Shown: one piece after another, positions 8,922 to 26,297 of the stretch
Position numbering within the stretch: position 1 is the first letter of the stretch
Layout of the letters: each line of letters starts with the position of its first letter
Source: Escherichia coli
Lineage (GTDB): Bacteria > Pseudomonadota > Gammaproteobacteria > Enterobacterales > Enterobacteriaceae
DNA: 64,000 bases
Reading direction: 5' to 3' (one strand)
NCBI RefSeq assembly: GCF_024223415.1
Contig: NZ_CP100500.1
Made by a program: the position numbers and the translations under genes
The notes under the pieces: generated by a model
What the model saw: only the letters and a program-made list of their open reading frames with translations
The model's database searches: none
What the model was told of the DNA's origin: nothing

Positions 8922-9451
8922 TGATCTATCCCCCAACAGGCTAATGCGCTTTCCTGGTCACGACGAATAACCTGTCCATAGCAGTTATTTGAACGGATAC
9001 GGCAGTCACGCCCACCATCCTTTATCCACCAGCGAATCGCCTCGCAGGCGCCTTTTCGATCACCGGCATTAAGCCGCTTATAAAACGTCGACGGGAAACA
9101 CTTACCGGGGCCAATGTTATAGGGACAGAATGACGCAATACCCGCTTTCTGTGGTTCGGTCAGAGGTACTTTAATATTGCGCTCCACCCATGCCAGTGCC
9201 TTATCACGTTCAATAGCGTTAACCTGGTCGCATTTTTCCTTCGACAGCTTCATTCCGGGAAAAACGGGTTTTCCATCCACCATCGTGGCACCCCGACAGA
9301 TGGTCCAGATGCCGGACCCATCGCGGTATGCCGTTGTGTGGTTACCCTCTTTTTCGTCCAGAAACTGATCAAGTATCTGAGGAGCAGATGCGCCAGCACC
9401 AATCAGCGCCAGAACGGCAGCCGACAGGCCGTATCTGATTTTTGCGTTCAT
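8918..9451 (-). CDS. SAR endolysin (T4-lysozyme-like GH24 muramidase with N-terminal signal-anchor-release segment)
   Basis: 177 aa; Gly/Ala-rich N-terminal segment [16 protein letters not shown]; E-x8-D-x5-T catalytic pattern ([16 protein letters not shown]). Confidence 0.88.
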
Positions 9452-9574
9452 GTATATTTATCAGGATCTAAAGGTTTATAACCCTGGATATATCAGGTAT
9501 ATAATCCAGTACCAGCATGTCTCATAAACATACCCGTTCAGGAAAACCAAACGACAACAGATGAGGCTTCAGAA

Positions 9575-9952
9575 ATGAACAGTAAAGAAAATTTGCGCAG
9601 TAGATTTTTGCAACTAATGACAGAAAAAGTTAAATCAGCGCTACTTCCACTTATGGTGGATAATAACGAAGCAACGAGCAGCATCCTTGCAGACCCTTAC
9701 GGTAAACTCTCGCATAAAACGCTGGATATTATTATGAGTGCATTAACACCCCGTATGCTTCAACACCTGAAACAAGATATTAACGCATGGGTGAATGAAG
9801 AATTGAGCCCCCCCTGTTCATGGGACAGACATTATGCATGGCAGCAAAAAATGAGGATTTTCAATTCATTATCACTAAAGTTCAGAGAACCGAAACAGCG
9901 TCCCTTCCCTCTGGAATCAGACAAAAAACAACCTGATCCCACAGGCCCGTAA
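9575..9952 (+). CDS. Hypothetical protein (125 aa), opposite-strand moron between holin and endolysin
   Basis: ATG ORF in visibly AT-rich segment; TATAAT-like hexamer upstream (~9508); no homolog recognised. Confidence 0.5.
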   Translation: MNSKENLRSRFLQLMTEKVKSALLPLMVDNNEATSSILADPYGKLSHKTLDIIMSALTPRMLQHLKQDINAWVNEELSPPCSWDRHYAWQQKMRIFNSLSLKFREPKQRPFPLESDKKQPDPTGP

Positions 9953-10108
9953 TATTTTGAATACCGTGATTATTGATATCACAATGAAAGCTATTCCGCA
10001 CAGTTATGCCCTGCTCCCCACGGGGCATGCCTCATGAAACGTTCCGGGCGTTTCATGTTCCCGGATTTTGTTAAAAGGTATATTATCCCCTCACTCCCGG
10101 GATATTCG

Positions 10109-10381
10109 TCATATTTCTTTTGGTGCCTTTTTCGCAATCTCAGCCACAGCATGTGCCGTAGCCGGAACATTACCGGCATTAGTTCGTTCCAGAATTTCGA
10201 GCAATATGCGGGTTCGTTTTTCCTGCTCCCGTTTGTTAAGGCGATAAGTAAGAACGCCAAGAATGATACTGAACGCCACGCCGATAATAAATCCCCAATC
10301 CTGCAGTGACAGGCTGGCAAAGAACGCAACAAGTCCTGCGCTGCCGTATGCAGCGTTACTGTATCGTTCGTCCATTCTCAT
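10109..10381 (-). CDS. Holin, pinholin-like (two TMDs, first SAR-like), dual-start MRM motif
   Basis: ATG at 10381 and 10375 (MRMDE); AAYGSAGLVAFFASLSL and WGFIIGVAFSIILGVLTY hydrophobic segments; immediately upstream of lysis genes. Confidence 0.75.
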   Translation of the reverse strand: MRMDERYSNAAYGSAGLVAFFASLSLQDWGFIIGVAFSIILGVLTYRLNKREQEKRTRILLEILERTNAGNVPATAHAVAEIAKKAPKEI

Positions 10382-10796
10382 AGTCCCTCACCTCCGCCAT
10401 CCGACATTACGGACGGCAGCAAGTCAGAATCTCGTTATAAAAAAGCCGCACGAAGAGGCTGTTTGTTCAGGTATTTTATCCAGTGCGCCGTAAAACCCCG
10501 ACCTTCAGGGTGTGGAGGATGTCAACATCAATAACTGACATTCTGCCCAAAGCTCCCGAAGATTCCCTTTGCACAATTTCACTGACCGGATCTCAGCACA
10601 AGCCACAGGGAATGGTCAGTGTGACGCTCTCTGTGGCCCCTCCTGAAAAGCCCTGTGGTTTAATCGCGACGGACCTGGCGCGGATATGAAGCAGGCCGTG
10701 AGCACGAGCCTGGAAATTTAGTGCCGACTACCGGAATTGAAGTGGTGGCCTGATGGTTACAACTAAACTGTTCTGCCGACTGAGGTAAGTCGGCAC

Positions 10797-10873
10797 TGGA
10801 CCGCCACCGGGGACTCGAACCTCGCACACTCAACTTAAAGGGTTGACGCTCTTTCCTGATGAGCTAGTGGCGG
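10797..10873 (-). tRNA. tRNA, identity uncertain (anticodon loop CCUUUAA reads UUU but has non-canonical C33; Lys- or Arg-like phage tRNA, possibly decayed)
   Basis: 77-nt cloverleaf: acceptor CCGCCAC/GTGGCGG, D-stem GCTC/GAGC, anticodon stem TCAAC/GTTGA, T-loop TTCGAGT, encoded CCA; 1 nt from neighbouring tRNA. Confidence 0.55.
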
Positions 10874-10874
10874 T

Positions 10875-10950
10875 TGGTGGCCCTTGCTGGATTTGAACCA
10901 GCGACCTGGCGATTATGAGTCGCTCGCTCTCACCACTGAGCTAAAGGGCC
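10875..10950 (-). tRNA. tRNA-Ile2-like (anticodon CAU; Met/Ile-lysidine type), phage-borne
   Basis: GGCCCTTTAGCTCAGTGGTGAGAGCGAGCGACTCATAATCGCCAGGTCGCTGGTTCAAATCCAGCAAGGGCCACCA closely resembles E. coli minor tRNA-Ile (CAU); between Q and lysis genes as in Stx-phage ileZ-argN-argO clusters. Confidence 0.8.
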
Positions 10951-11070
10951 GGGCGCAGGATAATAACGTTACGAAATCAATGTTGCAAGCATTCAAAAAT
11001 CACCTGGTTAAAAATCACCCTTAGCTCCTCCACCAGCGCATTCACCATGTCTATCCGAGATAAGTGGCAC

Positions 11071-11100
11071 AAAAAAACCCGCTTGTGGGCGGGTTTTGTT
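11071..11100 (-). terminator. Candidate tR-prime (Q-antiterminated late terminator); hairpin also terminator-like on plus strand
   Basis: Minus-strand CCCGCCCACAAGCGGG hairpin followed by UUUUUUU, ~60 nt downstream of Q stop. Confidence 0.55.
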
Positions 11101-11160
11101 TGCTTTTGCCATCACGTACAAAATCGGCAAAATATCAGATTTGCATGAAATATATGCCTT

Positions 11161-11850
11161 TCAATCTACTTTTGCAACACTTTGCTTTGAAAATGCCGCC
11201 TTTTGTTTTGAACGTGTTCTCATTACAAACAATAAAGCCTCACTATCCAGTCGGTGAAAAATGTGTTTCATTGCAACCCAGTGACGAGTAAATGTTTTGG
11301 ACCAGTTTTTAGTTGTCACTCCCGCCAGTAATGCCAGCTCCTGGTATTCATAACTTTCCCCACCAAAAAGTTCTGCTTTTACTGCCTGCGCCGCCAGCCA
11401 GATTAATTTTTTCAGGCGTTCCTGCGTTTTCCCTGCAATTTTTCTGGTACCTGATTGAGTATTAAATTCATTCCACGCCCACTGTGTTATCGCGATCTGA
11501 TATTCCCAACAAATACTCCCGCTGTAACTCCACAACAACCAGGCTTTATGATGTTCTTCAAGAGACAGAACAGCCCGCCGCCACGATGATGTCGAAAACT
11601 CAACCGGGCTGACCAGGGCAATTGATGAGCCTTTCGCCAGTGATTGTTTTCCCGGGATTGGTGGATTATCCCGCGTTATCATTTTTCCAGTCACTTCATC
11701 GCGGTACCGGATTTTTTTACGCCTGTAACGCCCTGTATCAAACATGGCATTCTCCTGCCAGGCCTCAAGCTGCCCTTTTGTTGATCCACTCAAATCGGCG
11801 GTGGCAATCATGAGTTGCTGACGAACAAACTGTAAATACTGGTTATTCAT
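11161..11850 (-). CDS. Late antiterminator Q (Phage_antitermQ-type, assigned mainly by position)
   Basis: ATG at 11850 overlaps rusA stop (ATGA); sits between rusA and tR-prime/tRNAs/lysis genes; family assignment by context and approximate recall. Confidence 0.6.
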   Translation of the reverse strand: MNNQYLQFVRQQLMIATADLSGSTKGQLEAWQENAMFDTGRYRRKKIRYRDEVTGKMITRDNPPIPGKQSLAKGSSIALVSPVEFSTSSWRRAVLSLEEHHKAWLLWSYSGSICWEYQIAITQWAWNEFNTQSGTRKIAGKTQERLKKLIWLAAQAVKAELFGGESYEYQELALLAGVTTKNWSKTFTRHWVAMKHIFHRLDSEALLFVMRTRSKQKAAFSKQSVAKVD

Positions 11851-12212
11851 GCGCACTCCAGTTCTGTGATTTTTATCCCCAACCGCCCACCAGGAACAAG
11901 CTGACCGCGCACAATATTAATTTCATCAAACTGCTCGTCGTCTATGAGCAGCCCAGCATGCGTCAGTGCATCCAGTGGTGCCTTCAGGATATTGTCCAGG
12001 TCACGACGGCGCTTATCCGGTGGCTCTGCAATAATTTTTATTGCCAGCCTTCCTGACAGGTTTAATTTCAGTCGCTGCTGGCGAACAATAAGCGCCACAT
12101 CACGGCGATAACGCTCACCGGCTTTTGATACAAAATATGTGCTGCCACGACGTCGCCAGTAGGTATTCACCGTCGGCGGGTAAGGCAAAACAAATTCTAT
12201 GCGTTCAGTCAT
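11847..12212 (-). CDS. rusA: Holliday junction resolvase RusA
   Basis: 121 aa; ERIEFVLPYPPTVNTYW...RDLDNILKAPLDAL RusA signature. Confidence 0.85.
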   Translation of the reverse strand: MTERIEFVLPYPPTVNTYWRRRGSTYFVSKAGERYRRDVALIVRQQRLKLNLSGRLAIKIIAEPPDKRRRDLDNILKAPLDALTHAGLLIDDEQFDEINIVRGQLVPGGRLGIKITELECA

Positions 12213-13268
12213 TCATGCTTTCCACTTCAGGACACCCGAATTTCTCGCGTGCATTAAAAAACGAATCAGCAACAACAGCTGGCTGCCGTGTTTTTCTTCA
12301 AAATCTTTTACCCCGGCGTGCAGTTCGTTATGACATTTACGGCACAGCGGAATAACAAACAAATCATCAGCCTTTGTTCCCATCCCTCCCAGTCCATGAC
12401 CAATGATGTGATGCGGATCATCTGCCTGATTACCGCACGTCATGCATTTCTGCGTTTTTACCCAGCGCGTGTATACAGGCATCTCTTCCCGTTGTGGTTT
12501 CTGGCGCTGGAGATACTGAGCCGGTGACTCCGGATCAACGGCAATGCTGACCACCGCCTCTTCCTGTGGCGGGTTTTGCTGGTGGGCGTGAGGCAGCGGC
12601 GCAAGATTTTTTGTGCGCTGCTTCAGTATGCTGGTGGCGGTCTGCTCTCCCGGTACGATGTCGCTTTCACGGTACATTGAGCGGATTTTTTCCGCACGCA
12701 ACCCCAGCGAACGACGTAATACCGCTTCCGGTAGCGCGTCCGCCACCTGATTGCGGACCGCCCACCAGGATAATTCAGCCAGAGATAATTCACGCTCCTG
12801 CGTACCGCTTATTGCGTGACCGATGACGTCAATCATCCATGCTGACAGGTTTTGATGAGCAAGTTGCTCGAGTGATTCGGATGTCTGGTCACGCAGCTGG
12901 TTGTCGCAGTGCCAGCACAACACCATCGCGCCGGTACCGTAACGATGTATGACGATTTCACTGTGATGATAGTCACCATGAGGCCACTGGCAGGATTTGA
13001 CATGACGCAACAGCCAGTCAGACAGTGCCCCAGCGCCGCCAACAGCACGAATCACCCGATCATCGCTGAAAAATGGCAGTAATGATTTATCCTCCGCCAG
13101 CGGCTGGCGAACGGCAGGGACGACTCCGGATGGCAGGCCGCACGTACTTTTCGGTTCCGGCTCCACCAGCACTCGAGGATTGTGAAATACCGGCATGGAT
13201 TCACGACCGGGCTTAAGGACCACCAGCCCGAGTTCCGGTACCAGAACAGGTCGAAGTAATACCCGCAC
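12213..13268 (-). CDS. DUF968-like phage protein with C-terminal HNH/zinc-finger-like motif
   Basis: 351 aa (GTG start; alternative ATG at 13196); C-terminus CMTCGNQADDPHHIIGHGLGGMG...PLCRKCHNELH. Confidence 0.55.
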   Translation of the reverse strand: MRVLLRPVLVPELGLVVLKPGRESMPVFHNPRVLVEPEPKSTCGLPSGVVPAVRQPLAEDKSLLPFFSDDRVIRAVGGAGALSDWLLRHVKSCQWPHGDYHHSEIVIHRYGTGAMVLCWHCDNQLRDQTSESLEQLAHQNLSAWMIDVIGHAISGTQERELSLAELSWWAVRNQVADALPEAVLRRSLGLRAEKIRSMYRESDIVPGEQTATSILKQRTKNLAPLPHAHQQNPPQEEAVVSIAVDPESPAQYLQRQKPQREEMPVYTRWVKTQKCMTCGNQADDPHHIIGHGLGGMGTKADDLFVIPLCRKCHNELHAGVKDFEEKHGSQLLLLIRFLMHARNSGVLKWKA

Positions 13269-13269
13269 G

Positions 13270-13542
13270 TTACCTCCAGATCCGTTGCTGGAATGTGCGG
13301 GACGGACGCGGTGGGCGTTCGGAGTAAGGAAGCCTGACGGAGATTATCCAGTGACGATAATCGAGGCTGAGGGCTTTCTTAATCTCGTATCCGTGTCTGC
13401 GGTAACACTGAATCAGCCATTCGGCCTGTTCTTCAGTGCATGGAGGGTGTTGGTACCAGTCGGTTTTAAATACGCGAGAACGCCGCCCATGCCTGCTGGC
13501 ACGAACGGCATCAGAATTGTGATTTTTGGTATTGTGCGCCAT
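13270..13542 (-). CDS. Hypothetical nin-region protein (90 aa from ATG 13542)
   Basis: ORF only; ORF-track start at 13623 is TTG. Confidence 0.4.
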   Translation of the reverse strand: MAHNTKNHNSDAVRASRHGRRSRVFKTDWYQHPPCTEEQAEWLIQCYRRHGYEIKKALSLDYRHWIISVRLPYSERPPRPSRTFQQRIWR

Positions 13543-13734
13543 TTGTTTTCTCTGCTGGCGCAGCAGGTGCCAGTTGTTCAGGCTAGCGTGCAGATTGTAA
13601 ACCAGAATTCCCGGAAAAAACAAAACTCGCTCAGGCTGGTATGCTAATCATCACAGTCATGTTTGATGGGGTTAGCTCACATTGGGTGAGGGTTCACGGC
13701 GTTTTCACTAATAATTTACCGTCCCCGCTATACA

Positions 13735-14127
13735 CTACTGCCCAGTTCTAACGAAGTTTTTGAAGGAAACAACTGCCTGATAGAGGTTTGGTTGACAGCC
13801 AAACATATTATCGCAAAAAGGCTGGATGAAAATTCTTGAGGATCCATCTTCATTTGGCATTTTACTCACTTGATAAGCGAGGAGTGGACTATTTGGTGAG
13901 GGGTTATAAGTGGAAATTAGCGTGTCTGTCGCCGTTTGAATTTTCCATGCGGAATTATTAGCCAACCAGAATTGCGCGCGTTTCCAATAAAAGTCACATT
14001 GCTTTTCATCTTTACATGTTAGTGGCTTCATTGCTTCTGCTTTCAACGCAGGATCGACCTTTGCTGCACACCCTCCCAACATTACTGTTGCAATCATTAC
14101 ACCTGCAACTAAAACAAGTTTCTTCAT
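13735..14127 (-). CDS. Hypothetical outer-membrane lipoprotein (moron), 130 aa
   Basis: MKKLVLVAGVMIATVMLGGC signal with lipobox LGGC, +2 Ala; four further Cys; visibly AT-rich segment bounded by hok terminator region. Confidence 0.6.
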   Translation of the reverse strand: MKKLVLVAGVMIATVMLGGCAAKVDPALKAEAMKPLTCKDEKQCDFYWKRAQFWLANNSAWKIQTATDTLISTYNPSPNSPLLAYQVSKMPNEDGSSRIFIQPFCDNMFGCQPNLYQAVVSFKNFVRTGQ

Positions 14128-14270
14128 CTCCCTGCCCCCATCAGTAAAAGTTCGGTTCTCTGATAACTAGAGTTAATCAACGGAAAAACGCCGAAGCGGG
14201 TTAAGTGTGGGTGCATTGAGGATGCCTGACTCATCAGAGGTGGCGAGGGATTTCTCCCTCGCCTGGTCTC

Positions 14271-14426
14271 TTACTCCTCAGGTTCGTAAGCTGTGAAGAC
14301 AGCGACCTCCGTCTGGCCGGTTCGGATTCGTACCTCGCAGAGGTCTTTCCTCGTTACCAGTGCCGTCACAATGACGGTAATACAGATGACGATCAGGGCG
14401 ACTAACATCGCCTTTTGCTGCTTCAT
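14271..14426 (-). CDS. Hok/Gef-family type I toxin (HokD/RelF-like)
   Basis: 51 aa MKQQKAMLVALIVICITVIVTALVTRKDLCEVRIRTGQTEVAVFTAYEPEE matches Hok family; in-frame upstream ATG at 14483 also present. Confidence 0.8.
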   Translation of the reverse strand: MKQQKAMLVALIVICITVIVTALVTRKDLCEVRIRTGQTEVAVFTAYEPEE

Positions 14427-14637
14427 AGCCTGCTTCTCCTTGCCTTTCGGCACGTAAGAGGCTAACCTAGATTTGCCGTTCATAGATTGAGCCTCAGATT
14501 AATGTTAAGCGTCTTGCCGGACGCGTAATGTTAACTGGGGCTTTTCTCTATCTGCCTTTTGGGGTTCATGCCTGAGACAGATAGCCTCAAGCACCCGCTG
14601 CAATTCTACTTAACTCTCCTTTTCCCGCAAACCATTT
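14427..14637 (-). promoter_or_regulatory. hok mRNA leader; expected location of antisense Sok-like RNA (plus strand) and mok-like reading frame
   Basis: By analogy with hok/sok loci; GGCGAGGGA-TTTC-TCCCTCGCC hairpin just 3-prime of hok at 14233-14254; exact sok ends not determinable. Confidence 0.3.
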
Positions 14638-14721
14638 TTATCCCCAGCGGCAAATCGAATACACCACCAGCGCCACCGCCATCGCAATTCCTACCGTTGT
14701 GAATGCTTCAGGCCAGGTCAT
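14638..14721 (-). CDS. Small hydrophobic peptide (27 aa, MTWPEAFTTVGIAMAVALVVYSICRWG), translationally coupled to upstream gene
   Basis: ATG overlaps TGA of 14718-15233 gene (ATGA); single predicted TM helix; not in ORF track (under 60 aa). Confidence 0.35.
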   Translation of the reverse strand: MTWPEAFTTVGIAMAVALVVYSICRWG

Positions 14722-15233
14722 CGTAAAATATCCTCCGCGCTTATCAGTCCATTTCGTTTCAGGTAATCCATCGCCTTCTCCGGTAATTTGCAGTCCGGCT
14801 GAGCTTTTTTCAGTTGACTGACCAGTCGTTTAACCCACATTGTTAATTCGCCAACCTGATTACTGGATGCCAGTGGATTGTCGGCTTTACCCAGAATGAC
14901 AGCACAGCAGGCCTCTTTGAGCACCCAATCAACAGCATCTTTCCATGCTCCTGTTTCGACTGGTGGATTCTCACGCTTTACCTGTTCATAAAAGCGCACG
15001 GCTTTAACCAGTCCTTCTGATGTCACCGGGACTGACGGGGCAGTGAATAAGGCCTGAATCTCATAGCTCGGCCTGTCGTTGCAATCCTCTTTTGTCGGTA
15101 CATATTTCCAGTCACCAACCCACATCTTCTCCTGAAAGTCCGTAACGCCTTTTTTCACGTAGCGATATCGCCATACAACTGGTTTTGCCTGCCCTGCCGT
15201 TTCATGCCCTTCCTGATAATTAATCTCGCTCAT
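14718..15233 (-). CDS. Hypothetical protein (171 aa)
   Basis: ATG start overlaps stop of upstream small acidic ORF (ATGA); no homolog recognised. Confidence 0.55.
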   Translation of the reverse strand: MSEINYQEGHETAGQAKPVVWRYRYVKKGVTDFQEKMWVGDWKYVPTKEDCNDRPSYEIQALFTAPSVPVTSEGLVKAVRFYEQVKRENPPVETGAWKDAVDWVLKEACCAVILGKADNPLASSNQVGELTMWVKRLVSQLKKAQPDCKLPEKAMDYLKRNGLISAEDILR

Positions 15234-15406
15234 TCATCGGCCCACTCATCACAATATGCTTCGACCGGAGTTTTTCCTGCTTCGTAGTCATCACGCCAGG
15301 CTTCAGCATCAGCAGCACTTCCACCACGTAACTCTGCATAATCCATTAACAGTTCATTCCATTCTTCAAAACTGACGTTGTATTTAGTTGAACCAAAACC
15401 AGCCAT
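15230..15406 (-). CDS. Hypothetical small acidic protein (58 aa)
   Basis: ATG at 15406; MAGFGSTKYNVSFEEWNELLMDYAELRGGSAADAEAWRDDYEAGKTPVEAYCDEWADE; stop overlaps next ATG. Confidence 0.4.
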   Translation of the reverse strand: MAGFGSTKYNVSFEEWNELLMDYAELRGGSAADAEAWRDDYEAGKTPVEAYCDEWADE

Positions 15407-15581
15407 TTTGTTCTTCCTCTTCGTCTTTTATTTCGTGATATGAGTAATTGCAGTAGTTAAAGAAAATTTCTTTTGCTTCGTCATGAATTTCATCAGGTGT
15501 TGCGTCATCGTCCACTTCGAATACATCCTCAAAATCTCCACCAGCTATTCCCGTTTCAATAATTATTTTGAACTTTCGCAT
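15384..15581 (-). CDS. Hypothetical small acidic protein (65 aa)
   Basis: ATG ORF; strongly acidic; overlaps next ORF start. Confidence 0.4.
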   Translation of the reverse strand: MRKFKIIIETGIAGGDFEDVFEVDDDATPDEIHDEAKEIFFNYCNYSYHEIKDEEEEQNGWFWFN

Positions 15582-15674
15582 TTCACTACCGCCCTTTCGG
15601 GTGGCCTCCTGCTGTTCTGAGGGTGCAGAAATCCCTACGGTTAAGGATTAAATTTTTAACAGTGCTAAATTTAA

Positions 15675-16031
15675 TTATTCAGTTCTTGATTTTGCCGCCC
15701 TGCGTATCCGCGCTTTCGCGTTACGCTCAATATGAATTAGCTTTTCTATATTTTTTCGCCTTTCCCGTTCCTCCTGGCGCAAGAGCCTTACATCATCTGC
15801 CAGTCTGGTTTCTCTTTTCGCCACAGAGAGCATCCAGTCAAATGGCTCCACAACTGCACCGCAGATTTTACAGCGGACCTGACGCTCTTTTTCGTCAACC
15901 CGGACAGAGGCGTGATGACAATATGGTCTTTCCGATGGCTCATAAAGAAAATTAACCTGATTACGTGGGTCATCCTCTTTTACCGGAAATAAAACAATAT
16001 TACTTAACTCATCTTCTGGTTTTATTTCCAT
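15675..16031 (-). CDS. Hypothetical zinc-finger-like protein with basic C-terminal helix (118 aa)
   Basis: CHH...CKIC motif; C-terminal Arg/Lys-rich heptad-like segment. Confidence 0.5.
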   Translation of the reverse strand: MEIKPEDELSNIVLFPVKEDDPRNQVNFLYEPSERPYCHHASVRVDEKERQVRCKICGAVVEPFDWMLSVAKRETRLADDVRLLRQEERERRKNIEKLIHIERNAKARIRRAAKSRTE

Positions 16032-16084
16032 GCTCCTCTCCTTTGATGCGAATGCCAGCGATAATTGAAGCCTGATAGCTAATT

Positions 16085-16507
16085 TTACTCACAGCCCCCC
16101 TGATAATTTCCCTGATAAAACGCCAGCACGCGCTGCATAACTTCGCTCTTCCTGCACTCGCAACAGATTATGTTCTGACGCCTGTCGTAGCGGCGTATTT
16201 CTCCGTCTGGTAATGACCAGATAAGGTCAGGATCAACCACAACCGGTTTTTTCACCTTTGCCCTGGATAGTTTTTTGCGGGCATTTTGCCAGTCCTTACG
16301 AGCCTGTTCAGACGGGAATAACCCGTAACCAGAGTTGTATACATCACCACTGGCAACCAGCTCTCTGGCAAGAACGCTCAGCAGATATCTTGTCGCACCT
16401 GTTTTCGCTTCCTGTTGTCGTAACGTCTCGCGCGCACTCCGGCGTACCAGCTCAACAACCTGCCCTTTAATTTTTTCCCGCTCTTCTTGTGTAAATACTT
16501 TTGCCAT
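16085..16507 (-). CDS. Hypothetical nin-region protein (140 aa from ATG 16507)
   Basis: ORF-track start 16522 is TTG overlapping upstream stop; ATG 15 nt downstream. Confidence 0.5.
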   Translation of the reverse strand: MAKVFTQEEREKIKGQVVELVRRSARETLRQQEAKTGATRYLLSVLARELVASGDVYNSGYGLFPSEQARKDWQNARKKLSRAKVKKPVVVDPDLIWSLPDGEIRRYDRRQNIICCECRKSEVMQRVLAFYQGNYQGGCE

Positions 16508-16522
16508 AAGCGCCTCCGGCAA

Positions 16523-17293
16523 TCACTTTTCCGATACAACACGGCGGGAAGAATCAGTAATCTGTCGAACAATATCCCGGTGCTTGTTCAGCTCCCGCAG
16601 CGCGGCGCAGACTCGCTCCCACTTCTGAACATGATTTTTCGCCCGACGCAATTCGCGGTTTGCCATATGCAGCGATGGTAAAACCAGGTCATCCGCTCGG
16701 GTTTCAGTAAACGATGGCAACGATTGCACAATATCAGCCACAGTTTCTGTTTTAATATCTTCCTGTGTTGCAGCTTCCTGTACTGGTAACGCAACACCTG
16801 CTGGCTGAGGAAAGGCTTTACCATCAGTTTCCGCTACCGATGCAGACTCCGGCCCTGCCGGTAAGTTGTCGTCCGGCAGGAAGTAACGAAATTTACCGTT
16901 CCGATTAACGCGTGCCAGCCGCCCCGTTGCGGTTACTACCGCCAGTGTGGAAGCAACCTTGCGAGTGCTGACACCGAACTTACCCGCCAGTTCCTCACAC
17001 GTTTTAGCCCCCTCCTGACTGATAAACTCAATCATCATGTCTGCGGTAACTTTTTGTTCGACCTCCCCGGTCAGCATATCCTGTGCTTCAGATTTTACTG
17101 GTCGCTCTTCGGTTACCCGGGATTCACCTTCGCCAGCCAGAAACCAGGTGTGACCAGTTTTATCAACGACGCCATTTCTTTTGAGTTCCCACAGCTCGTT
17201 CAGCACTTCTTCACGACTGATATCAAGTCGCGCAGCCAGCTCTACCGATGTGGCTTTTCCCATCGCTTTCAGTGCGTCAAAAACAGTCTCCAT
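16523..17293 (-). CDS. Hypothetical DNA-binding protein with two winged-helix-like segments (256 aa)
   Basis: N-terminal LAARLDISREEVLNELWELKRNGVV and central ELAGKFGVSTRKVASTL helix-turn-helix-like stretches. Confidence 0.5.
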   Translation of the reverse strand: METVFDALKAMGKATSVELAARLDISREEVLNELWELKRNGVVDKTGHTWFLAGEGESRVTEERPVKSEAQDMLTGEVEQKVTADMMIEFISQEGAKTCEELAGKFGVSTRKVASTLAVVTATGRLARVNRNGKFRYFLPDDNLPAGPESASVAETDGKAFPQPAGVALPVQEAATQEDIKTETVADIVQSLPSFTETRADDLVLPSLHMANRELRRAKNHVQKWERVCAALRELNKHRDIVRQITDSSRRVVSEK

Positions 17294-17325
17294 AAATTTC
17301 CTCCCGGTAAAAATTACTTCTCAAC

Positions 17326-17991
17326 TCAGACAAAACCAGCCGCTTTCCGGCGTTCATACTCCTGTTTCAGCAACTCAATTGGCGTTGGTCCCGACGGGCG
17401 TTTGGGGGCCGCCAGTTGTCGCCGGACTGGCGGAACGCTGAGGCCCATACCAACATGCTTTGACCATTTCGTCAGTTGCCGTTCTGCAAACCGTTTTAAC
17501 TCCCCTTCGGTCATCTGGCGTTCAATCCCCTTTGAACGCATCTCGAGGCATATGTGATACAGCACAGGCTGAGACCACGGGTATTTATCGCTTCCGTCGT
17601 ATCGCCAGGACTCATTGCGCCAGCGTCGGTACTCCTCCATCACAGCCCCCACCGTCAGACCGAATGGATTGGCCCCGCTTTCCGGAATCAGTGCCACAAA
17701 CTCAGCCAGGTCAGGAGGCCATGTTTCACCCGCCCGGCAGCGGTCCATGCACTGGCGGCAGACCTGCCGGATTTGCTGCTCAGTCATCGCGCCAATCTGT
17801 GCAATCCAGAGCTTCGAAGGTGCGGCCCCGTTCTTCCGGGTCCAGCGGTCCGAATAAACCTCCCCCATGAGTTCCCACAGCTTCCAGGCTGTTTCCGTCG
17901 CTGATAAATCCGTTTTCACGTTCCCACTGCTCACGTGCTGCCCGAATTTCCTGAACTGCCCGTGATGCGGTGCCACCTGGTGCTGCTGCAT
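17326..17991 (-). CDS. Replication protein P-like (helicase loader); start uncertain (ATG 17991, 17868 or 17787)
   Basis: C-terminal two-thirds resemble lambda P as recalled (YPWSQPVLYHICLEM vs YPWKSNAHYWLVTNL; ELKRFAERQL vs ELRRKAADEL); 17787 start overlaps O-like stop. Confidence 0.6.
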   Translation of the reverse strand: MQQHQVAPHHGQFRKFGQHVSSGNVKTDLSATETAWKLWELMGEVYSDRWTRKNGAAPSKLWIAQIGAMTEQQIRQVCRQCMDRCRAGETWPPDLAEFVALIPESGANPFGLTVGAVMEEYRRWRNESWRYDGSDKYPWSQPVLYHICLEMRSKGIERQMTEGELKRFAERQLTKWSKHVGMGLSVPPVRRQLAAPKRPSGPTPIELLKQEYERRKAAGFV

Positions 17992-18790
17992 GGTTCACCC
18001 CCTTGCTGACTGGTTTAACCTGCGCCCTGACGTGATTTACGTGACGGGCGAATTTCTGCTCCCACTGAACCTGTGTGAACACTTTCCCCTCCGCCATCCA
18101 GTAATCCCGGAAGGCGGCAAGTTCAGCAGGTGTAAATTCCGGTTCCGGCAAAGCCGCTCCCCACAACGCAGCCCGCCGTCGAAAATCCAGCGACGGATGC
18201 CAGCCATCGGCCATCGGAAATTTCCCGATGGGTTCACTCAGGCCATCCGGAAATTCAGGTTCCGCCACCTGCAACGGCGTACCGTTCGGTTCACTGGTCG
18301 GAGCACTCTCGCGCACGCGCGCGTTATGTGTGGGGTTTAATTCTTTATCTGTATCTTTATTAGTTGCCTTTGTGTTTGCGTCATGTTCAAACACCACACC
18401 AACATTTGTTTGAACACCTGTTAAATCTCTCTCTTGTTTTGTTTGAACATCTGCTTCCTTTCTGCTTCTTCTGGCCTGAACAGATGCTTTTCCGGCGGCT
18501 GATTTTTTGGTTAATTTTTCCCTGACTGATGCCAGATCTTCCTCAATCCGAAGATGCACCCATTCATCGCCGTTATCGTGAAAAAACTCCCGCAAGGATG
18601 GCTCCACATCAGCCCATCGCTCATTAGTCAGACGGGCAATTTTTGCCAGCCTGTTTTTAGGTATTGGCTTTCCTGTTTGCCAGTAATTGAACATCAGCAA
18701 CAAATACGCACCGTGCTCCTCTGCTGATAAATGCATGGTGTCAGCCAGGTAATCAGCGATGTACAGTTGCATGTATGGTAATGCGGCCAT
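17780..18790 (-). CDS. Replication initiator, DUF1376/YdaU-like (lambda O analogue) with internal iteron origin
   Basis: 336 aa; LMFNYWQTGKPIP N-terminal domain; iterons and AT-rich tract inside the coding region of a hydrophilic linker. Confidence 0.6.
   Translation of the reverse strand: MAALPYMQLYIADYLADTMHLSAEEHGAYLLLMFNYWQTGKPIPKNRLAKIARLTNERWADVEPSLREFFHDNGDEWVHLRIEEDLASVREKLTKKSAAGKASVQARRSRKEADVQTKQERDLTGVQTNVGVVFEHDANTKATNKDTDKELNPTHNARVRESAPTSEPNGTPLQVAEPEFPDGLSEPIGKFPMADGWHPSLDFRRRAALWGAALPEPEFTPAELAAFRDYWMAEGKVFTQVQWEQKFARHVNHVRAQVKPVSKGVNHAAAPGGTASRAVQEIRAAREQWERENGFISDGNSLEAVGTHGGGLFGPLDPEERGRTFEALDCTDWRDD
18384..18483. repeat. Origin-like iterons TGTTTGAACA (18407-18416, 18440-18449), inverted copy TGTTCAAACA (18384-18393), partial copy (18476-18483); adjacent AT-rich tract ~18335-18365
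   Basis: Exact 10-mer repeats read directly; arrangement mirrors lambda ori inside O. Confidence 0.5.
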
Positions 18791-18860
18791 AATTGCCTCT
18801 TCTGATACCGAATTCCTTAATCACGTACTACCGAAAGCGATCCGGTATAACTATTGCCAG

Positions 18861-19286
18861 TCAGTGCATCACCACAGCATTACCCGCCGGGCCACCACGA
18901 TTCATCTGATTGAAACCGGCGATTGCCACTGCGATAAAATCATCAGCGTCTCTCACCAGCCGTTCTCGTGTCTCCAGCAGCTCCCTGAAATAGGCTGAGC
19001 TGTGGCTACGCATTCTGGCCACCAGCAAAGGCGGCATTGCCTTTTCGATCGCTGGTAGTAACGCCTGAATTTTTTCAACCGCATCAGGGGTGTCTTTCTC
19101 CACCCAGCGGAAAATTTTCTGGGTATTACGGGCCAGGGCTTCCGGATGGCTGTCGTCATACAGTTCCGGGAACGTCATACCCAGCTCAAAATAAGCCCGG
19201 GTTATTTCAGCTGCCGGAACTTTTTCGCCATCCGGACGCGCCCAGGCATTCATCGCCATGCGGATGTGTTCATGCTTGATTTTCAT
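18861..19286 (-). CDS. YdaT-like protein (Rac-type, function unclear)
   Basis: 141 aa immediately downstream of cro-like gene, overlapping its stop; size and position as Rac ydaT. Confidence 0.45.
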   Translation of the reverse strand: MKIKHEHIRMAMNAWARPDGEKVPAAEITRAYFELGMTFPELYDDSHPEALARNTQKIFRWVEKDTPDAVEKIQALLPAIEKAMPPLLVARMRSHSSAYFRELLETRERLVRDADDFIAVAIAGFNQMNRGGPAGNAVVMH

Positions 19287-20115: not shown

Positions 20116-20152
20116 TACCCATGGGTATTTACTTCTTGGATACCCATGGGTA
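20116..20152. promoter_or_regulatory. Second operator pair: two perfect TACCCATGGGTA palindromes (20116-20127, 20141-20152) just 3-prime of repressor gene
   Basis: Exact 12-bp palindromes 25 bp apart, same consensus as OR-like pair. Confidence 0.45.
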
Positions 20153-20474: not shown

Positions 20475-20675
20475 TTACTTCAGAAAGGCTCCGGTGATTA
20501 CACCGAAGATATTGTCAACGATTTCCTCATCGAATTGCGAGGACTCATCTTCAGTTACAAGGTGACCACAATTTTTGCAGATGGCTCCCGCGAAACTGTC
20601 AGAGCCCTGCGGCTTAAAGGATGTGTCGAAGACTTCGCCACCACATTCTGGGCAAGAAAACTTGATTGTATTCAT
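20475..20675 (-). CDS. Hypothetical zinc-ribbon protein (66 aa; CPEC...CKNC); strand assignment ambiguous
   Basis: CxxC-x23-CxxC pattern; competing 118-aa plus-strand ORF 20340-20696. Confidence 0.4.
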   Translation of the reverse strand: MNTIKFSCPECGGEVFDTSFKPQGSDSFAGAICKNCGHLVTEDESSQFDEEIVDNIFGVITGAFLK

Positions 20676-21484
20676 AACCAATTTCCTCTCGGGTAACAGA
20701 CCCCTCAGAGGATACCACCTCGCCTGACGTGGTTAAAAGCAGGCACACAACACGAAAGCGCACGGCGAGGTAGCTGGTTCATATATAGCCTGTCGTTAAA
20801 TTTTCGTCGACCGTGCGCTTCCGGTTGTGGCACTCCGCGAAATGGCGCGGCGGTAAGCATGGCGGGGTTCCCTTCCCCTTGAGGACACCGGGTTGTCAGG
20901 TTGACCATGCGCCTGAGTGACAACCCCGCTGCAACGCCCTCTGTTATCAATTTTCTGGTGACGTTTGGCGGTATCAGTTTTACTCCGTGACTGCTCTGCC
21001 GCCCTTTTTAAAGTGAATTTTGTGATGTGGTGAATGCGGCTCAGCGCACGCGGAACAGTTAAAACCAAAAACAGAGTTATGGGTGGATTCTCTGTATCCG
21101 GCGTTAATTGTTAACTGGTTAACGTCACCTGGAGGCACCTGGCACCGCATCAACAAAGTTCACTTCGGTGATGAAAGGTAAGAGAAAATGTTGAATGTAG
21201 CTATTGAAAACCAGTACGGGTGGAATTATAGTGCACCTGCACCTCATAAAACGGGTGCCGGGCGTGGAAACCCGAAAGTTACTCGAGCGCATAACCGCGC
21301 CGAAGCGGTTTTTTTATGCGTAATGCACAGCCACATTCAGATAATGGTGGGGCGTGCAGGGCAGCTGCAAGGCTGGCCGGGTTCTCGAGTGACCGGTATT
21401 TCCACCCCTGTACGTCTCGCCACCCTTATGGTCGTGGAAAGCCTCGGTGGTGAGTTAATTAACTTAACACTTGAGGATGCCATC

Positions 21485-22036
21485 ATGGCTACTACCCTTA
21501 CCCTTTCTCACCCTGACGTAACCATTGAAAATGGTCGCGCTGTCACTACGTCTATTGCGATCGCAGAATTCTTCGGCAAGCAGCATCACCATGTTGTTCA
21601 AAAAATAGAGGCCCTCGAATGTTCTGAACGCTTTTTAACCAGCAACTTTTCGCGGGTTAAATTCGAGCACCGTGGCAATACCTACAATGCCTACCAAATC
21701 ACCAAAAACGGCTTCGTTTTCCTGGTGATGGGCTTCACGGGCAAAAAGGCCGCTGCATTCAAGGAAGCCTACATTGCCGAGTTCGACCGCATGGAGGAAG
21801 AACTGCGCCGGAATAACACCACACCCGCTGACAAAATAATCCCGGGTGATGGCCGCACCCTGGTTATCCGCTTCGACGAACACGGCTACATCAAATTCAC
21901 CGAAACCGTTCCTGATGGCGCACTGGTCTGTACTCTGGATACTTTCCGTTTTTATCTGGAAAAGCAGGGATGGACTCTCATAAACCGGGGCGCAATTAAA
22001 AATATGACCGTCGAGCAGTTGCTGAGTATTAAATAG
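21485..22036 (+). CDS. Phage regulatory protein Rha family
   Basis: VTTSIAIAEFFGKQHHHVVQKIEAL...NAYQITKNGFVFLVMGFTGKKAAAFKEAYIAEFDRME Rha-domain signature; GAGGA 8 nt upstream of ATG 21485. Confidence 0.75.
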   Translation: MATTLTLSHPDVTIENGRAVTTSIAIAEFFGKQHHHVVQKIEALECSERFLTSNFSRVKFEHRGNTYNAYQITKNGFVFLVMGFTGKKAAAFKEAYIAEFDRMEEELRRNNTTPADKIIPGDGRTLVIRFDEHGYIKFTETVPDGALVCTLDTFRFYLEKQGWTLINRGAIKNMTVEQLLSIK

Positions 22037-22081: not shown

Positions 22082-22303
22082 ATGATTGCTCATCACTTCG
22101 GAACCGATGAAATACCACGCCAGTGCGTCACTCCCGGCGATTACGTTATTTACGAAGGCCGGACATATGTTGCATCGGCAAACAATATCGAAAAGCAAAA
22201 ACTTTATATCCGTGATTTCACTACAAAAACATGCATTACTGACCGCATGATTAAAGTCTTCCTCGATCGTGATGGTTTACCTGTAAAGGCGGAGGCATGG
22301 TGA
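22082..22303 (+). CDS. Hypothetical protein (73 aa)
   Basis: ATG with strong AAGGAG RBS. Confidence 0.55.
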
Positions 22304-22422: not shown

Positions 22423-24876
22423 ATGAGCACTGATAAAGAAACTTTTGCGCTATATTGCGAAGCTAAAAATGACAAAGTCAGAAAACGCCTTGGGATTAAA
22501 GGTGGTTTTTACTGGACTACAGCAAAAAAATTATCTGTTGCCATCTCCCGCTGCATTACCGCAATGGATGATAACGATTATGATGAAGACGACTTTAAAA
22601 AACCTGTTCGCGTCCATTTGCCCGTTGTTGATGACCTTCCACCGGAAGGCGTGTTTGATACCGAATTCTGTAACCGGTATGAAAAAGGCGGCGAAGATGG
22701 CATCACAATGATATTTATCGCGCCTCCGCCATCCGCGCAGGACAAACCAGCCAGCACTGACAACACCAATGTTAATGGCGAAGACATGACTGAGATTGAG
22801 GAGAATATGCTTCTGCCGGTTTCAGGTCAGATTCTGCCTGTTCGCTGGCTGGCGCAACACGGCGGCGAAAAACCAGTAACGCACGTTTCGCGGGATGAAC
22901 TGCGCTCATTACATAACGCACAGGAAGAAAAACTTCCCGCCGTTACCGCGCTGGCCATCTCAAATAAAGCAGCGCAACTCGAACCGCTGGAGATTCGGGA
23001 TTTGTACAAACTGGTGCGGGACACTGACAAAGTTTTTCCCGCCCCCGTAAATTCAGACCTGGGACTGATGACCTCCTTCATCGAAGCATACCTAGACGCT
23101 GACTACACTGATCGTGGTCTGCTTACAAAAGAGTGGATGAAAGGAAATCGTGTTTCTCGCATCAGTCGCACACCATCCGGCGCTAACGCTGGCGGCGGTA
23201 TTCTTACCGATCGCGGCGAAGGTTTTGTGCATGATAATGCGTCAATGGCATTCGATGTTGCTACAGGAAAACTGGCTCGTTCGATGGATGTGGATATTTA
23301 CAACATGCATCCTTCACATACCAGACGTGTTAACGAAATTATCGCAGAAAATGATCCCTGTTTCTCCGTCTTCCTTAAGGCTTTTCTGAACATGCCAGGC
23401 GGGATGGATTATTCCCGCGCCATCGTGGTTGCCTCCGTGAAAGAAGCACCGGTTGGTATAGAGGCTATGCCCCACCGCGTCACCGAATACCTGAATAAAG
23501 TGCTGACCGAAACCGATCATGCCAACCCTGATCCGGAAATCGTGGATATTGCCTGCGGTCGTTCCTCTGCCCCAATGCCGCAGCGTGTAACAGAAGAAGG
23601 AAAACAGGATGATGAAGAAAAACCGCAACCGTCTGGCGCAATGGCAGATGAACAGCCAACGACTGAAACAGTGGAACCGGATACAACTGAACATCATCCG
23701 GACACGCAGCCGCTGGATGCTCAGCCGCAGGTGAATTCTGTTGATGCGAAATATCAGAAACTGCGGGCAGAACTCCATGAATCCCGGAAAAACATTCCGC
23801 CCCAAAATCCTGTCGACGAAGACAAGTTGCTGGCAACCTCTGGCGGAGAATTTGCTGAAGGGATTAGCGACCCGAATGATCCGAAATGGGTGAAGGGGAT
23901 TGAAACCCGCGATTCTGTGAACCAGAATCAGCAAGAAACGGAACAGAACGACCAGAAAGCGGAACAAAACAGCCCAAATGTGCAACGAAAAGAGCCAAAA
24001 GCGAAACAATCCGAACCAGTAGCGCAACAGGAACCGGAAAAAGTCTGCACCGTCTGCGGTCAGAGCGGTGTCGACAACTGTCCTGATTGTGGCGTGGTGA
24101 TGGGCGACGCAACATACCAGGAAATGTTCGATGAAGAGAATCAGCCTGAAGTTCAGGAAAATGATCCAGAGGAAATGGAAGGCTCTGCGCATCAGAACAA
24201 GGAGAACTCTGGCGGCAATCAGCATCATGCCAGCGATAGTGAAACTGGCGAGACGGCAAATCCCTTAATTAAGATAACCAGTCATCACAAATATAAGTCC
24301 ACAAGCAAAACGTGGTATCACCTGATGATCGACCTTGAAACAATGGGAACCAACACCAATGCACCCATAGTAGTTATTGGTGCGGTTTTCTTCGACCCGG
24401 AAACAGGGGAAATCGGGCCGGTATTTTATATCGTTATCAGCCTGACTGACGCAATGAATACAGGGGCTGTTCCTGATGGTGGCACCATCGAATGGTGGCT
24501 GAAGCAGTCCAGCGAAGCCAGAGCTGCCATTTTAACTGACCAGGTAAAAATGAAAGATGCCCTTTTGCGTTTTCGGGAATTCGTCAATGAACACTCTGAT
24601 GAAAAATTCGTTCAGGTGTGGGGTAATGGCGCAACGTTCGATAACGCAATTTTGCGCACCTCATACGAACGTCTGGACATCCCCTGTCCGTGGCATTACA
24701 GCAACGATCGTGATGTACGCACAATCGTTGAGATGGGGAAAATCACAGACTTCAATGCCAGAAGCGTAATTCCATTCGAAGGCGTGCGCCATAATGCTCT
24801 GGATGACGCTCTTCACCAGGCAAAATACGTAACAGCCGCTATACAAAAACTGATCCCGAATCAGGCTGATTTTTAA
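22423..24876 (+). CDS. Exonuclease: RecE-like N-terminal region fused to DnaQ-like DEDDh 3-5 exonuclease C-terminal domain
   Basis: 817 aa; N-terminal ~590 aa resemble Rac RecE as recalled ([78 protein letters not shown]); C-terminal motifs [27 protein letters not shown]. Confidence 0.8.
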
Positions 24877-24940: not shown

Positions 24941-25189
24941 ATGGCAAGACTTATTCTGCTCACTGAGTGGGCAAAAGAGGAATTCAGTGAACCGGTCCCT
25001 ACTCCGGGTACGTTAAGTAAATACGCTAAAGCCGGAATGATATTTCCTCTCCCCAAAAAAGTAGGAAGGCACTGGCGAGTGGATCCACGCGCTCGCTTTG
25101 TCGGAATGGTAAACAAGCCGGAGGTGATCGCCACAGATCACCCTGCTTTGAAGAGGATACTGGAAGATGGCGCGCCCGCGAAAATATAA
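24941..25189 (+). CDS. xis: Excisionase (lambda Xis-like)
   Basis: 82 aa directly upstream of and overlapping int; LTEWAKE...RHWRV resembles lambda Xis. Confidence 0.7.
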   Translation: MARLILLTEWAKEEFSEPVPTPGTLSKYAKAGMIFPLPKKVGRHWRVDPRARFVGMVNKPEVIATDHPALKRILEDGAPAKI

Positions 25190-26297
25190 AACCGATGTTC
25201 CGGGTTTATCTCCGTATTTTGACAAAAGAAATAACAAAGTTTACTGGCGTTACAGGCATCCCATCACAGGTAAAAATCATGGACTCGGCAGTATTGACCA
25301 GAAACTGGCGGAAACCATTGCAGCAGAAGCGAACAGCCGTCTTGCCAGACAACAAATGGAGCAAATTCTCAGTCTGCAGGAGAAAATTATTAGTGATACC
25401 GGCGGCGCATCAACCGTTTCCATTTTTCTGAATAATTACAGAAAAATTCAACAGGAAAGATATGAGAACGGAGAGATCAAACTCAGCACGCTGAAGCAAA
25501 AAGCGGCTCCTCTCAGGGTGTTTGATGAACGTTTTGGAGCCAGGCCGCTAGATGCCATAACCGTAAAAGATGTGGTATCGGTGCTGGAAGAATACAAGGC
25601 AAAGGGACATAACAGAATGGGACAAATTTTCAGGAAGGTATTGATCGATGTTTTCCGGGAGGCTCAACAAACGGGTGATGTTCCGCCAGGCTTTAACCCG
25701 GCTGAATCGGCAAAAAAACCGCAAGTGCGGATATCAAGACAGCGACTGACTTTTGATGAGTGGATGATGATTTATAACGCAGCGGAAAAGGATGGTTACT
25801 TTTTACAGCGCGGCATGCTGCTGGCACTGATGACGGGCCAGCGTCTTTCGGATATTTGCAAAATGCAGTTTTCGGATATCCGGGATGGTTACCTTCATGT
25901 CGAACAGCAAAAAACAGGAGCCCGGATAGCCATTCCTCTGGCTCTGCGTTGCGACAAATTAAATCTTACCCTGGGTGACGTGGTGTCATCCTGTCGTGAT
26001 TACATCCTTAGTCCGTGGTTATTGCACCATCATCACGCTAAGGGGATGGGTAAGCGCGGCGGGATGGTTAAACCAGCAACATTAACAGTCGCATTTAAAA
26101 AAGCCCGGGATTCTGTGGATTACAACTGGCGTGCTAATGGCACGCCACCCTCTTTCCATGAGCAAAGATCTTTATCAGAACGATTGTTCAGAGAACAGGG
26201 AATTGATACCAAAATTTTGCTGGGCCATTCGAATCAAAAAATGACCGATATTTACAACGACGCACGCGGTAAAGAGTGGAAAAAACTGGTTATTTGA
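25167..26297 (+). CDS. int: Tyrosine integrase (lambda Int family)
   Basis: 376 aa; C-terminus LLGHSNQKMTDIYNDARGKEWKKLVI parallels lambda Int LLGHKSDTMASQYRDDRGREWDKIEIK (catalytic Tyr). Confidence 0.9.
   Translation: MARPRKYKTDVPGLSPYFDKRNNKVYWRYRHPITGKNHGLGSIDQKLAETIAAEANSRLARQQMEQILSLQEKIISDTGGASTVSIFLNNYRKIQQERYENGEIKLSTLKQKAAPLRVFDERFGARPLDAITVKDVVSVLEEYKAKGHNRMGQIFRKVLIDVFREAQQTGDVPPGFNPAESAKKPQVRISRQRLTFDEWMMIYNAAEKDGYFLQRGMLLALMTGQRLSDICKMQFSDIRDGYLHVEQQKTGARIAIPLALRCDKLNLTLGDVVSSCRDYILSPWLLHHHHAKGMGKRGGMVKPATLTVAFKKARDSVDYNWRANGTPPSFHEQRSLSERLFREQGIDTKILLGHSNQKMTDIYNDARGKEWKKLVI

Follow-up and report, generated by a model that had tools for sequence, protein, structure and literature searches.

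We analyzed a 64,000-nucleotide (nt) stretch of Escherichia coli DNA (contig NZ_CP100500.1; referred to here as the window), focusing on the gene that closes the early-left operon of a lambdoid prophage. The product of this gene is a three-part chimera, in which a RecE-family N-terminal region and an acidic tether are followed by a DEDDh exonuclease domain of the DexA/Rv2179c type. Its 3′-5′ exonuclease activity is well supported by homology, and by analogy to characterized relatives we predict with high confidence that the enzyme is active, while its biological role is something that we infer. Tentatively, we propose a scaffold-tethered enzyme that would trim DNA ends in the 3′-5′ direction during the lytic cycle of a phage relying on RecBCD and RecA of its host. 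The architecture is widespread, annotated with the correct polarity by the Prokaryotic Genome Annotation Pipeline (PGAP), represented in PHROGs, and covered by a published class of phages, and the window gene is a diverged allele of this known but uncharacterized kind.

A RecE-family N terminus joined to a DEDDh exonuclease domain

The gene is a single, intact open reading frame (ORF) of 817 codons with an ATG start and a GAGG Shine-Dalgarno sequence ∼7 nt upstream, exactly as delimited in a first-pass annotation that a model had made from the letters of the window (Table 1). Its product is 99.8% identical to WP_059327931.1, which PGAP names “3′-5′ exonuclease.” The likeness of the N-terminal ∼590 residues to RecE, which that annotation had put forward, turned out to be stronger than it had suggested: by BLASTP, residues 50 to 591 of K-12 Rac RecE align with amino acids (aa) 58 to 616 of the window protein at 70% identity (559 aligned residues), and no similarity extends past RecE residue 591. 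The Pfam model Exonuc_VIII (PF06630) matches aa 57 to 189 (E value, 3e-26). The NCBIfam equivalog model for RecE (NF007259) is matched over positions 1 to 620 of 877 only, with a score of 1019 that lies below the cutoff of 1269, indicating that the protein has a RecE N terminus but is not a RecE. Given that a review places the RecE nuclease domain at residues 564 to 866 (PMC11611040), the break in homology falls just inside that domain, immediately upstream of the crystallized catalytic core (3H4R). The PD-(D/E)XK 5′-3′ nuclease domain of RecE is absent from the window protein: Pfam gave no DUF3799 match, and the fold of aa 633 to 817 is that of a DEDDh enzyme.

This C-terminal part matches the Pfam family Rv2179c-like (PF16473) at aa 633 to 805 (model positions 2 to 175 of 177; E value, 1.5e-67), with a weak RNase_T match over the same stretch. 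The first-pass annotation had recognized the domain type correctly but let the domain begin at nt ∼24295, whereas PF16473 puts its start at about nt 24319. The three DEDDh motifs that it listed are all present, namely, MIDLETMG at aa 635 to 642 (nt 24325 to 24348), a second motif at aa 733 to 744, and HNALDDA at aa 790 to 796. The five catalytic residues (Exo I to III) are invariant in an alignment with T4 DexA, its E. coli homologue EcD, and stand-alone enterobacterial homologues. Among the sequences in the PDB, the only solved relative found with phmmer was T4 DexA (8KEL/8KEN; E value, 5e-10). An AlphaFold2 (AF2) model of aa 430 to 817 has a predicted local distance difference test score (pLDDT) of >90 over aa 633 to 817, and a Foldseek search of the PDB with this domain returned DexA first (E value, 4e-12), followed by RNase T, REXO2, and oligoribonucleases (Orn). 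Together, the PF16473 and Foldseek matches bear out the claim that the canonical RecE nuclease fold has been replaced. Purifying selection acts on all three parts of the gene. For the DEDDh domain, the ratio of nonsynonymous to synonymous divergence (dN/dS) is 0.04 to 0.23 between alleles, and the window allele is diverged, with a dS of ∼0.9 to 1.1 relative to the common O157-type allele.

Scaffold, tether, and distribution of the fusion

A structure model of aa 1 to 400 is confident (pLDDT, 89.6) and consists of a small α/β domain followed by an all-helical domain. The modeled part of the tether behind this scaffold (aa 430 onward) is mostly disordered (pLDDT <50 at aa 494 to 537 and ∼560 to 625). 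The tether is also the most widely shared part of the protein, kept by Rac RecE as well as by all prophage variants in the alignment: aa ∼465 to 616 are conserved in six of six aligned proteins, including those with a different N terminus, whose first ∼450 residues are mostly unrelated and align with the RecE type only over aa ∼325 to 365. Its short conserved elements are a helix, a 14-residue motif that is a possible candidate for a partner-binding element, and a predicted zinc ribbon, whose four cysteines are invariant in six of six proteins and where the AF2 model has short strands (pLDDT, ∼70). Synonymous divergence in the tether is low (dS, 0.2 to 0.3, versus 0.6 to 1.1 in the flanking parts), which suggests that the tether may serve as a homologous-recombination joint at which prophages reshuffle scaffold and nuclease modules. 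In every pairwise comparison, the dS of aa 461 to 620 (nt 23803 to 24282) was 3 to 5 times lower than that of the N- and C-terminal flanks.

To survey the scaffold, aa 1 to 625 were compared with 1.84 billion cluster representatives, and members of at least 450 aa were typed with phmmer. This yielded 18 representatives with the RecE nuclease, 14 with a DEDDh domain, and ∼45 with neither, and the DEDDh fusion is kept across 14 clusters that share <50% identity. When 36 of the proteins with neither nuclease were scanned with Pfam, only Exonuc_VIII was found, plus RecT in two and a weak DUF3799 match in one; the “RecE-2” proteins of Zheng et al. (PMC12315714) are the counterpart of this group. 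The two nuclease-less proteins in which Pfam recognizes RecT on the same chain (best E value, 2e-42) are either genuine RecE-scaffold::RecT fusions or products of gene-calling read-through. Faint matches to Pfam YdfE_C were seen within diverged RecE-type scaffolds. Given that the scaffold occurs with either type of nuclease or with none, its role would not depend on polarity or on RecT, meaning that the N-terminal 590 residues of RecE would have a function of their own.

The rarity that the first-pass annotation had implied did not hold. The DEDDh part is found in 1,411 of 5,426 complete E. coli genomes (about a quarter), and 1,036 of them hold 80% or more of the gene, with up to eight matching places per genome; carriers include O157:H7 and other Shiga-toxin-producing strains. 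PGAP calls the product “3′-5′ exonuclease” or “exonuclease,” full-length families already exist in PHROGs (phrog_2082 and phrog_607), and records of isolated phages (the vB_Eco series, Tritos, Evi, mEp460_ev081, and HannyBb) and of PPompW prophages list it as “exodeoxyribonuclease VIII”; a published class, named after Tritos, covers it as well (PMC12315714). In the literature on Rv2179c-like/PF16473/DUF5051, ydfE, and RecE-DnaQ topics, we found no explicit account of a RecE-scaffold::DEDDh chimera and no test of such a protein. Four further E. coli contexts, including O157:H7, have the order dicB/kil, (DUF1482), an 808- to 823-aa exonuclease, xis, and int, with attachment sites at ompW or potC and no annealase. 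Altogether, the gene lies directly upstream of xis/int and without an annealase in six of six E. coli prophage contexts and two of two phage records examined, so that the RecT gene for which related prophages were to be checked was found in none of them. In five of five diverged DEDDh fusions inspected, the next gene encodes an excisionase-type protein or an integrase, and no annealase was seen in the four contigs long enough to show the neighborhood.

Some near-identical alleles (99.4 to 99.8%) are disrupted. In E. coli strain 135 (locus 6001-8454), the gene is annotated as a 622-aa “RecE family” ORF and a 183-aa “3′-5′ exonuclease” ORF, the latter beginning at the methionine of MIDLETMG, and in strain GF60 an IS3 element interrupts it. 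Many 183-aa E. coli “stand-alone” database entries may likewise be fragments of split fusions. The ydfE pseudogene in the Qin prophage of K-12 MG1655 (locus 5079-5999) is the remnant of an exonuclease with the alternative N terminus, truncated at an IS2 insertion and 88% identical to aa 1 to 256 of the Tritos-type, 823-aa protein found in strain E2865.

Prophage context and proposed role

The gene is the last of the repressor-controlled early-left operon (kil-exo-xis-int) of a Rac/Qin-like lambdoid prophage that sits at ompW. The window contains, in this order, a cI-like repressor (19611-20072), DicF small RNA, a Rha/Ant-like ORF, kil, the exonuclease gene, xis, int, and ompW, and the two genes that follow the exonuclease had been named correctly in the first-pass annotation. 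PHROGs scans of the 20 ORFs from Q to int identified replication proteins, a RusA resolvase, an HNH/DUF968 protein, and regulators but no annealase, single-stranded DNA-binding protein (SSB), Gam, or Abc2. A relative with 99.8% identity over this gene, E. coli DG341-1, has a 47-kb lambdoid prophage that is also inserted at ompW; no annealase, SSB, or RecBCD inhibitor is annotated anywhere in that prophage. The claim that no RecT/Bet-like gene is adjacent thus agrees with both data sets, and the argument attached to it, that a 3′-5′ exonuclease cannot make the 3′ tails required for annealase-driven recombination, is sound enzymology. Promoter-like sites near the gene were no better than those of shuffled sequence, and none was found in the 119-bp gap before it. 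Given its operon position behind kil and the lack of an outstanding promoter, the gene should be silent in the lysogen and expressed from the early-left promoter only after induction. Rac recE, for comparison, is silent in lysogens.

In the role that we propose, the enzyme would be made only after induction or infection and would act on DNA 3′ ends as a two-metal (Mg2+) 3′-5′ exonuclease, as T4 DexA and EcD do. The RecE-type scaffold and tether would deliver the nuclease to where that of RecE goes, namely, the ends of phage DNA or intermediates of replication. Trimming of 3′ tails or flaps there would leave blunt or 5′-tailed ends usable by the RecBCD-Chi-RecA pathway of the host; ends that are blunt or nearly so are what RecBCD requires. 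Recombination for concatemer formation would then come from the host pathway, and the gene would amount to a single-gene, “nuclease-only” recombination module of the Tritos type. We hold the general reading, a lytic end-trimming enzyme of a RecBCD/RecA-dependent phage, to be plausible though tentative and the specific end-processing step to be somewhat more doubtful. Genome-end processing, one of two functions suggested in the first-pass annotation, is compatible with this proposal, while the other, anti-defense, found no support; both were speculative.

The proposal draws on the work of Zheng et al. (2025; PMC12315714), who reported DnaQ-like nucleases in lambdoid Rec modules. Class B (“Tritos”) in Table 1 of that work comprises four phages that have the nuclease, lack an annealase, an SSB, and an anti-RecBCD protein, and carry 7 to 21 Chi sites on the top strand, and the authors argue that phages of this class use RecBCD. 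In the window, seven co-oriented Chi octamers occupy the minus strand (the top strand of the virion) in the interval from the lysis genes to cI, i.e., at the right end of the virion map. The half of the prophage that lies in the window has seven top-strand and two bottom-strand sites, and ∼1.1 per strand would be expected in 10 kb, an interval that was chosen after looking.

Several points weigh against the proposal. The Chi density is approximately that of the host (9 in 26 kb), the whole prophage of a close relative has a host-like, nonenriched number (6 and 3 on the two strands, 9 in 47 kb), and the adjacent chromosome has the same strand bias (6 to 0). Given the post hoc interval, the host-like density, and the lack of enrichment in the relative, we treat the Chi cluster as weak support for a RecBCD-dependent life cycle. 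Zheng et al. (PMC12315714) did not count sporadic DnaQ-type genes near int as members of Rec modules and noted that 3′-5′ exonucleases usually lower recombination by destroying 3′ tails. The scaffold fold (aa 1 to 400) gives no functional clue, as no similar solved or annotated structure was found beyond its own family. The founding member of PF16473 is an exoribonuclease, and for the fused protein, we infer the polarity of the activity, the substrate (DNA or RNA), and the partners by analogy.

A broader version of the proposal appears rather unlikely. In it, the RecE N-terminal region and tether would form a general delivery platform that binds to a host factor, either at the replisome or at DNA ends, and phages would swap nuclease polarity on this platform according to their recombination strategy, using either a 5′-3′ enzyme with RecT for annealing of their own or a 3′-5′ enzyme alone to prepare ends for RecBCD-Chi-RecA. 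If true, however, the gene would be the missing phage component for recombination-dependent growth of annealase-less, Chi-bearing lambdoid phages, and the long-unexplained N-terminal two-thirds of RecE would be assigned a function. Since such genes are widespread in E. coli and under purifying selection, they offer a handle on how these phages recombine and replicate. A practical consequence concerns the many phage and prophage records (e.g., Tritos and vB_Eco) labeled “exonuclease VIII, dsDNA 5′-3′ exonuclease”: the catalytic domain has the opposite polarity and another fold, so that any RecET-like recombineering capacity inferred from the label would be wrong.

Alternatively, the protein could be a host takeover or anti-defense nuclease acting on RNA or small host nucleic acids, such as transcripts, small RNAs, or nucleic acids of defense systems. 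The Pfam family is named for the 3′-5′ exoribonuclease Rv2179c of Mycobacterium tuberculosis, RNA or short oligonucleotides are the substrates of the fold neighbors RNase T, Orn, and REXO2, and the early-left operon contains the host-directed kil and DicF. However, DNA is the substrate of DexA and EcD, the nearest characterized relatives in both sequence and fold; stand-alone homologues are part of a recombination module, where SSB and Abc2 flank them; on the scaffold shared with RecE, the domain takes the place of a nuclease that resects DNA ends; and no known anti-defense family was matched. All of this makes the alternative unlikely.

Quite unlikely, too, is a prophage exclusion or defense nuclease of the “HREX” type, which would digest incoming phage DNA modified with 5-hydroxymethylcytosine (5hmC) from its 3′ ends. 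The idea comes from EcD, which shares the catalytic residues and 35% identity with the window domain, digests the DNA of T4, and, upon expression from a plasmid, confers protection against this phage (PMC12153337). Two residues speak against carrying this reading over. D712 of the window protein is retained at the position of DexA D90, where EcD has A78, so that the HREX feature (loss of the D90 tetramer contact) is absent; and S760 occupies the position of DexA W152, the 5hmC reader proposed in PMC12153337, at which Tyr is found in the O157-type allele and Trp in EcD. (The position of DexA D169 aligns ambiguously.) Moreover, its position after kil in the early-left operon and the lack of promoter matches above the shuffled level lead us to expect that the gene is silent in the lysogen. 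The two diagnostic residues and the operon position led us to reject the HREX/5hmC function as a primary reading, and PADLOC, which gave a weak, generic DEDDh match only, lent no support to a known defense system.

EcD itself has a bearing on this question. Using the cloning primers in the supplement of PMC12153337, we located it as a 193-aa gene of E. coli S19-651 (NZ_CP075852.1, locus 5989-6570) in the early operon of a P2-like prophage, where its neighbors are an integrase gene, a cox-like helix-turn-helix gene, a ParE-like gene, Dam, and a replication endonuclease gene. EcD is thus a phage gene whose natural role, given this position, may also be lytic, and this affects how a result published for a bacterial defense nuclease should be read.

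Nucleotide scavenging, in which DNA fragments would be degraded to mononucleotides for phage replication, is a role of DexA in T4, and DexA is the nearest solved relative. We consider it very improbable here, since a conserved scaffold and tether of 630 residues would be superfluous for bulk scavenging and identity to DexA is only ∼29%; furthermore, lambdoid temperate phages are not known for breaking down the host chromosome. Hardly credible, finally, are annealase-driven recombination with a RecT or Bet borrowed from another prophage (E. coli genomes often hold several lambdoid prophages, and the gene itself can match several places in one genome), given that a 3′-5′ enzyme destroys the 3′ tail on which an annealase depends and that RecT binds the C-terminal nuclease domain of RecE, which is lacking here, or a functionless, decaying recE relic (as the split or interrupted alleles of strain 135, strain GF60, and K-12 ydfE might suggest), given that the ORF is intact in >1,000 genomes, is under purifying selection in its three parts, is carried by plaque-forming phages, and has kept the fusion across the 14 divergent clusters.

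Other features of the prophage were recorded alongside. Rfam detected DicF, isrK, and C4 antisense RNA at 20953-21004, 21239-21315, and 21340-21427 (plus strand), respectively. Both isrK and the C4 RNA fall within the 5′ part of the 282-aa Rha/antirepressor ORF (21188-22036). The layout resembles the immunity regions of the P1/P7 c4-ant or Gifsy isrK-anrP type, so that the true start of the antirepressor may be downstream of both RNAs. In the nin region, a sok antitoxin RNA (Rfam RF01794, 112 bits; 14421-14596, minus strand) implies a hok/sok-type toxin-antitoxin locus, and the DG341-1 prophage instead has a ParDE pair in roughly that region. The interval between Q and the lysis genes contains two phage tRNA genes (10797-10950, minus strand). 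ARAGORN called them Lys(ttt) and Met(cat), and PGAP annotates tRNA-Arg and tRNA-Ile in a close relative; the tRNA with the CAT anticodon is probably of the Ile2 type, and the ttt anticodon may genuinely depart from the usual Arg-tct. The prophage is a mosaic relative to its closest complete-genome match by megablast (NZ_CM144243.1; window positions 1 to 27000): there is no match at 5949-6710, 8252-8669, 13585-14636, 16503-17298, and 19299-21113, and 11071-13584 is only 88.7% identical.

Table 1. Coordinates of the chimeric exonuclease gene, its parts, and its surroundings in the window
Feature	Position	Strand	Basis or remark
Whole gene, 817-aa chimeric exonuclease	22423..24876	+	ORF list and translation; stop codon included
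Folded N-terminal RecE-family region, aa 1-390	22423..23592	+	α/β domain, aa 1-100; all-helical domain, aa 120-380
DNA-level homology to K-12 Rac recE (78.5%)	22761..24269	+	blastn; right edge is the chimera junction, codon 616
Acidic tether, aa 391-632	23593..24318	+	net charge −29; common to RecE
Conserved 14-residue motif, aa 480-493	23860..23901	+	nearly invariant, including in Rac RecE and YdfE-type variants
CxxC-x7-CxxC zinc ribbon (C542, C545, C553, C556), aa 542-557	24046..24093	+	predicted
DEDDh 3′-5′ exonuclease domain, aa 633-817	24319..24873	+	Pfam, fold match, and invariant residues
Catalytic D637	24331-24333	+	invariant in alignment
Catalytic E639	24337-24339	+	invariant in alignment
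Catalytic D740	24640-24642	+	invariant in alignment
Catalytic H790	24790-24792	+	invariant in alignment
Catalytic D795	24805-24807	+	invariant in alignment
kil, FtsZ inhibitor, directly upstream gene	22082..22303	+	PHROG 294; 88.8% DNA identity to Rac kilR
xis, excisionase, after a 64-bp gap behind the exonuclease gene	24941..25189	+	PHROG 629 (E value, 5e-34)
int, integrase	25167..26297	+	PHROG 7244 / PHROG 1; annotation of relative
ompW, abutted by the prophage end	26343-26981	-	annotation of relative
Seven co-oriented Chi octamers (GCTGGTGG) at 9026, 11030, 13163, 13220, 14664, 15538, and 19019	9026..19026	-	pattern count

Comparison with known systems

Rv2179c of M. tuberculosis, the founder of PF16473, is a stand-alone bacterial exoribonuclease with which the window domain shares the family; it was not among the PDB sequence matches or the top 50 fold matches of that domain. 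DexA, whose structure was solved in PMC12153337, and EcD, which both acted as DNA 3′-5′ exonucleases in vitro in that study, have the same DEDDh family, fold, and five catalytic residues, but they are stand-alone proteins of ∼190 to 227 aa with no scaffold. Klebsiella, Salmonella, Citrobacter, and related genera frequently carry stand-alone DEDDh homologues of ∼185 to 190 aa that are ∼60% identical to the window domain. Those found in Rec modules, in epsilon34 (PMC12315714) and in the P22-like Klebsiella phage phiKp_30, are 54 to 60% identical, share the start motif, and also belong to the early-left operon. In phiKp_30, the order N, Erf, SSB, DEDDh exonuclease (54% identical), and Abc2 forms a complete recombination module, whereas the window gene is fused and lacks such partners.

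Rac RecE (exonuclease VIII, P15032; nuclease structure, 3H4R) has the Exonuc_VIII domain, the acidic tether, and the zinc ribbon in common with the window protein, and the operon surroundings are alike, in that kil precedes the gene and xis/int follow it. The window protein has a different stretch of 57 residues at its start, and at the exact place where RecE has its PD-(D/E)XK 5′-3′ domain the window protein has the DEDDh domain. The Rac prophage continues with recT, ralR, rcbA, xisR, and intR after recE, and the window gene is followed by no recT, ralR, or rcbA. The window prophage accordingly does not fit the two-component recombinases of the lambda Red and RecET type, as the nuclease is a DEDDh enzyme and no annealase was found among the 20 ORFs scanned.

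A further counterpart is phage Tritos, whose nuclease is an 823-aa homologue of the window gene product, 70% identical over aa 465 to 816 and likewise encoded directly upstream of xis-int. Its YdfE-type N terminus of ∼450 aa aligns poorly, matching the RecE type only at aa ∼325 to 365, but the tether and DEDDh domain are alike, as is the layout of dicB/kil, exonuclease gene, xis, and int. Both lack genes for an annealase, SSB, and anti-RecBCD protein, and both have Chi sites. Having an early-left nuclease with none of these three partners, the window prophage has the composition of a “nuclease-only” Rec module.

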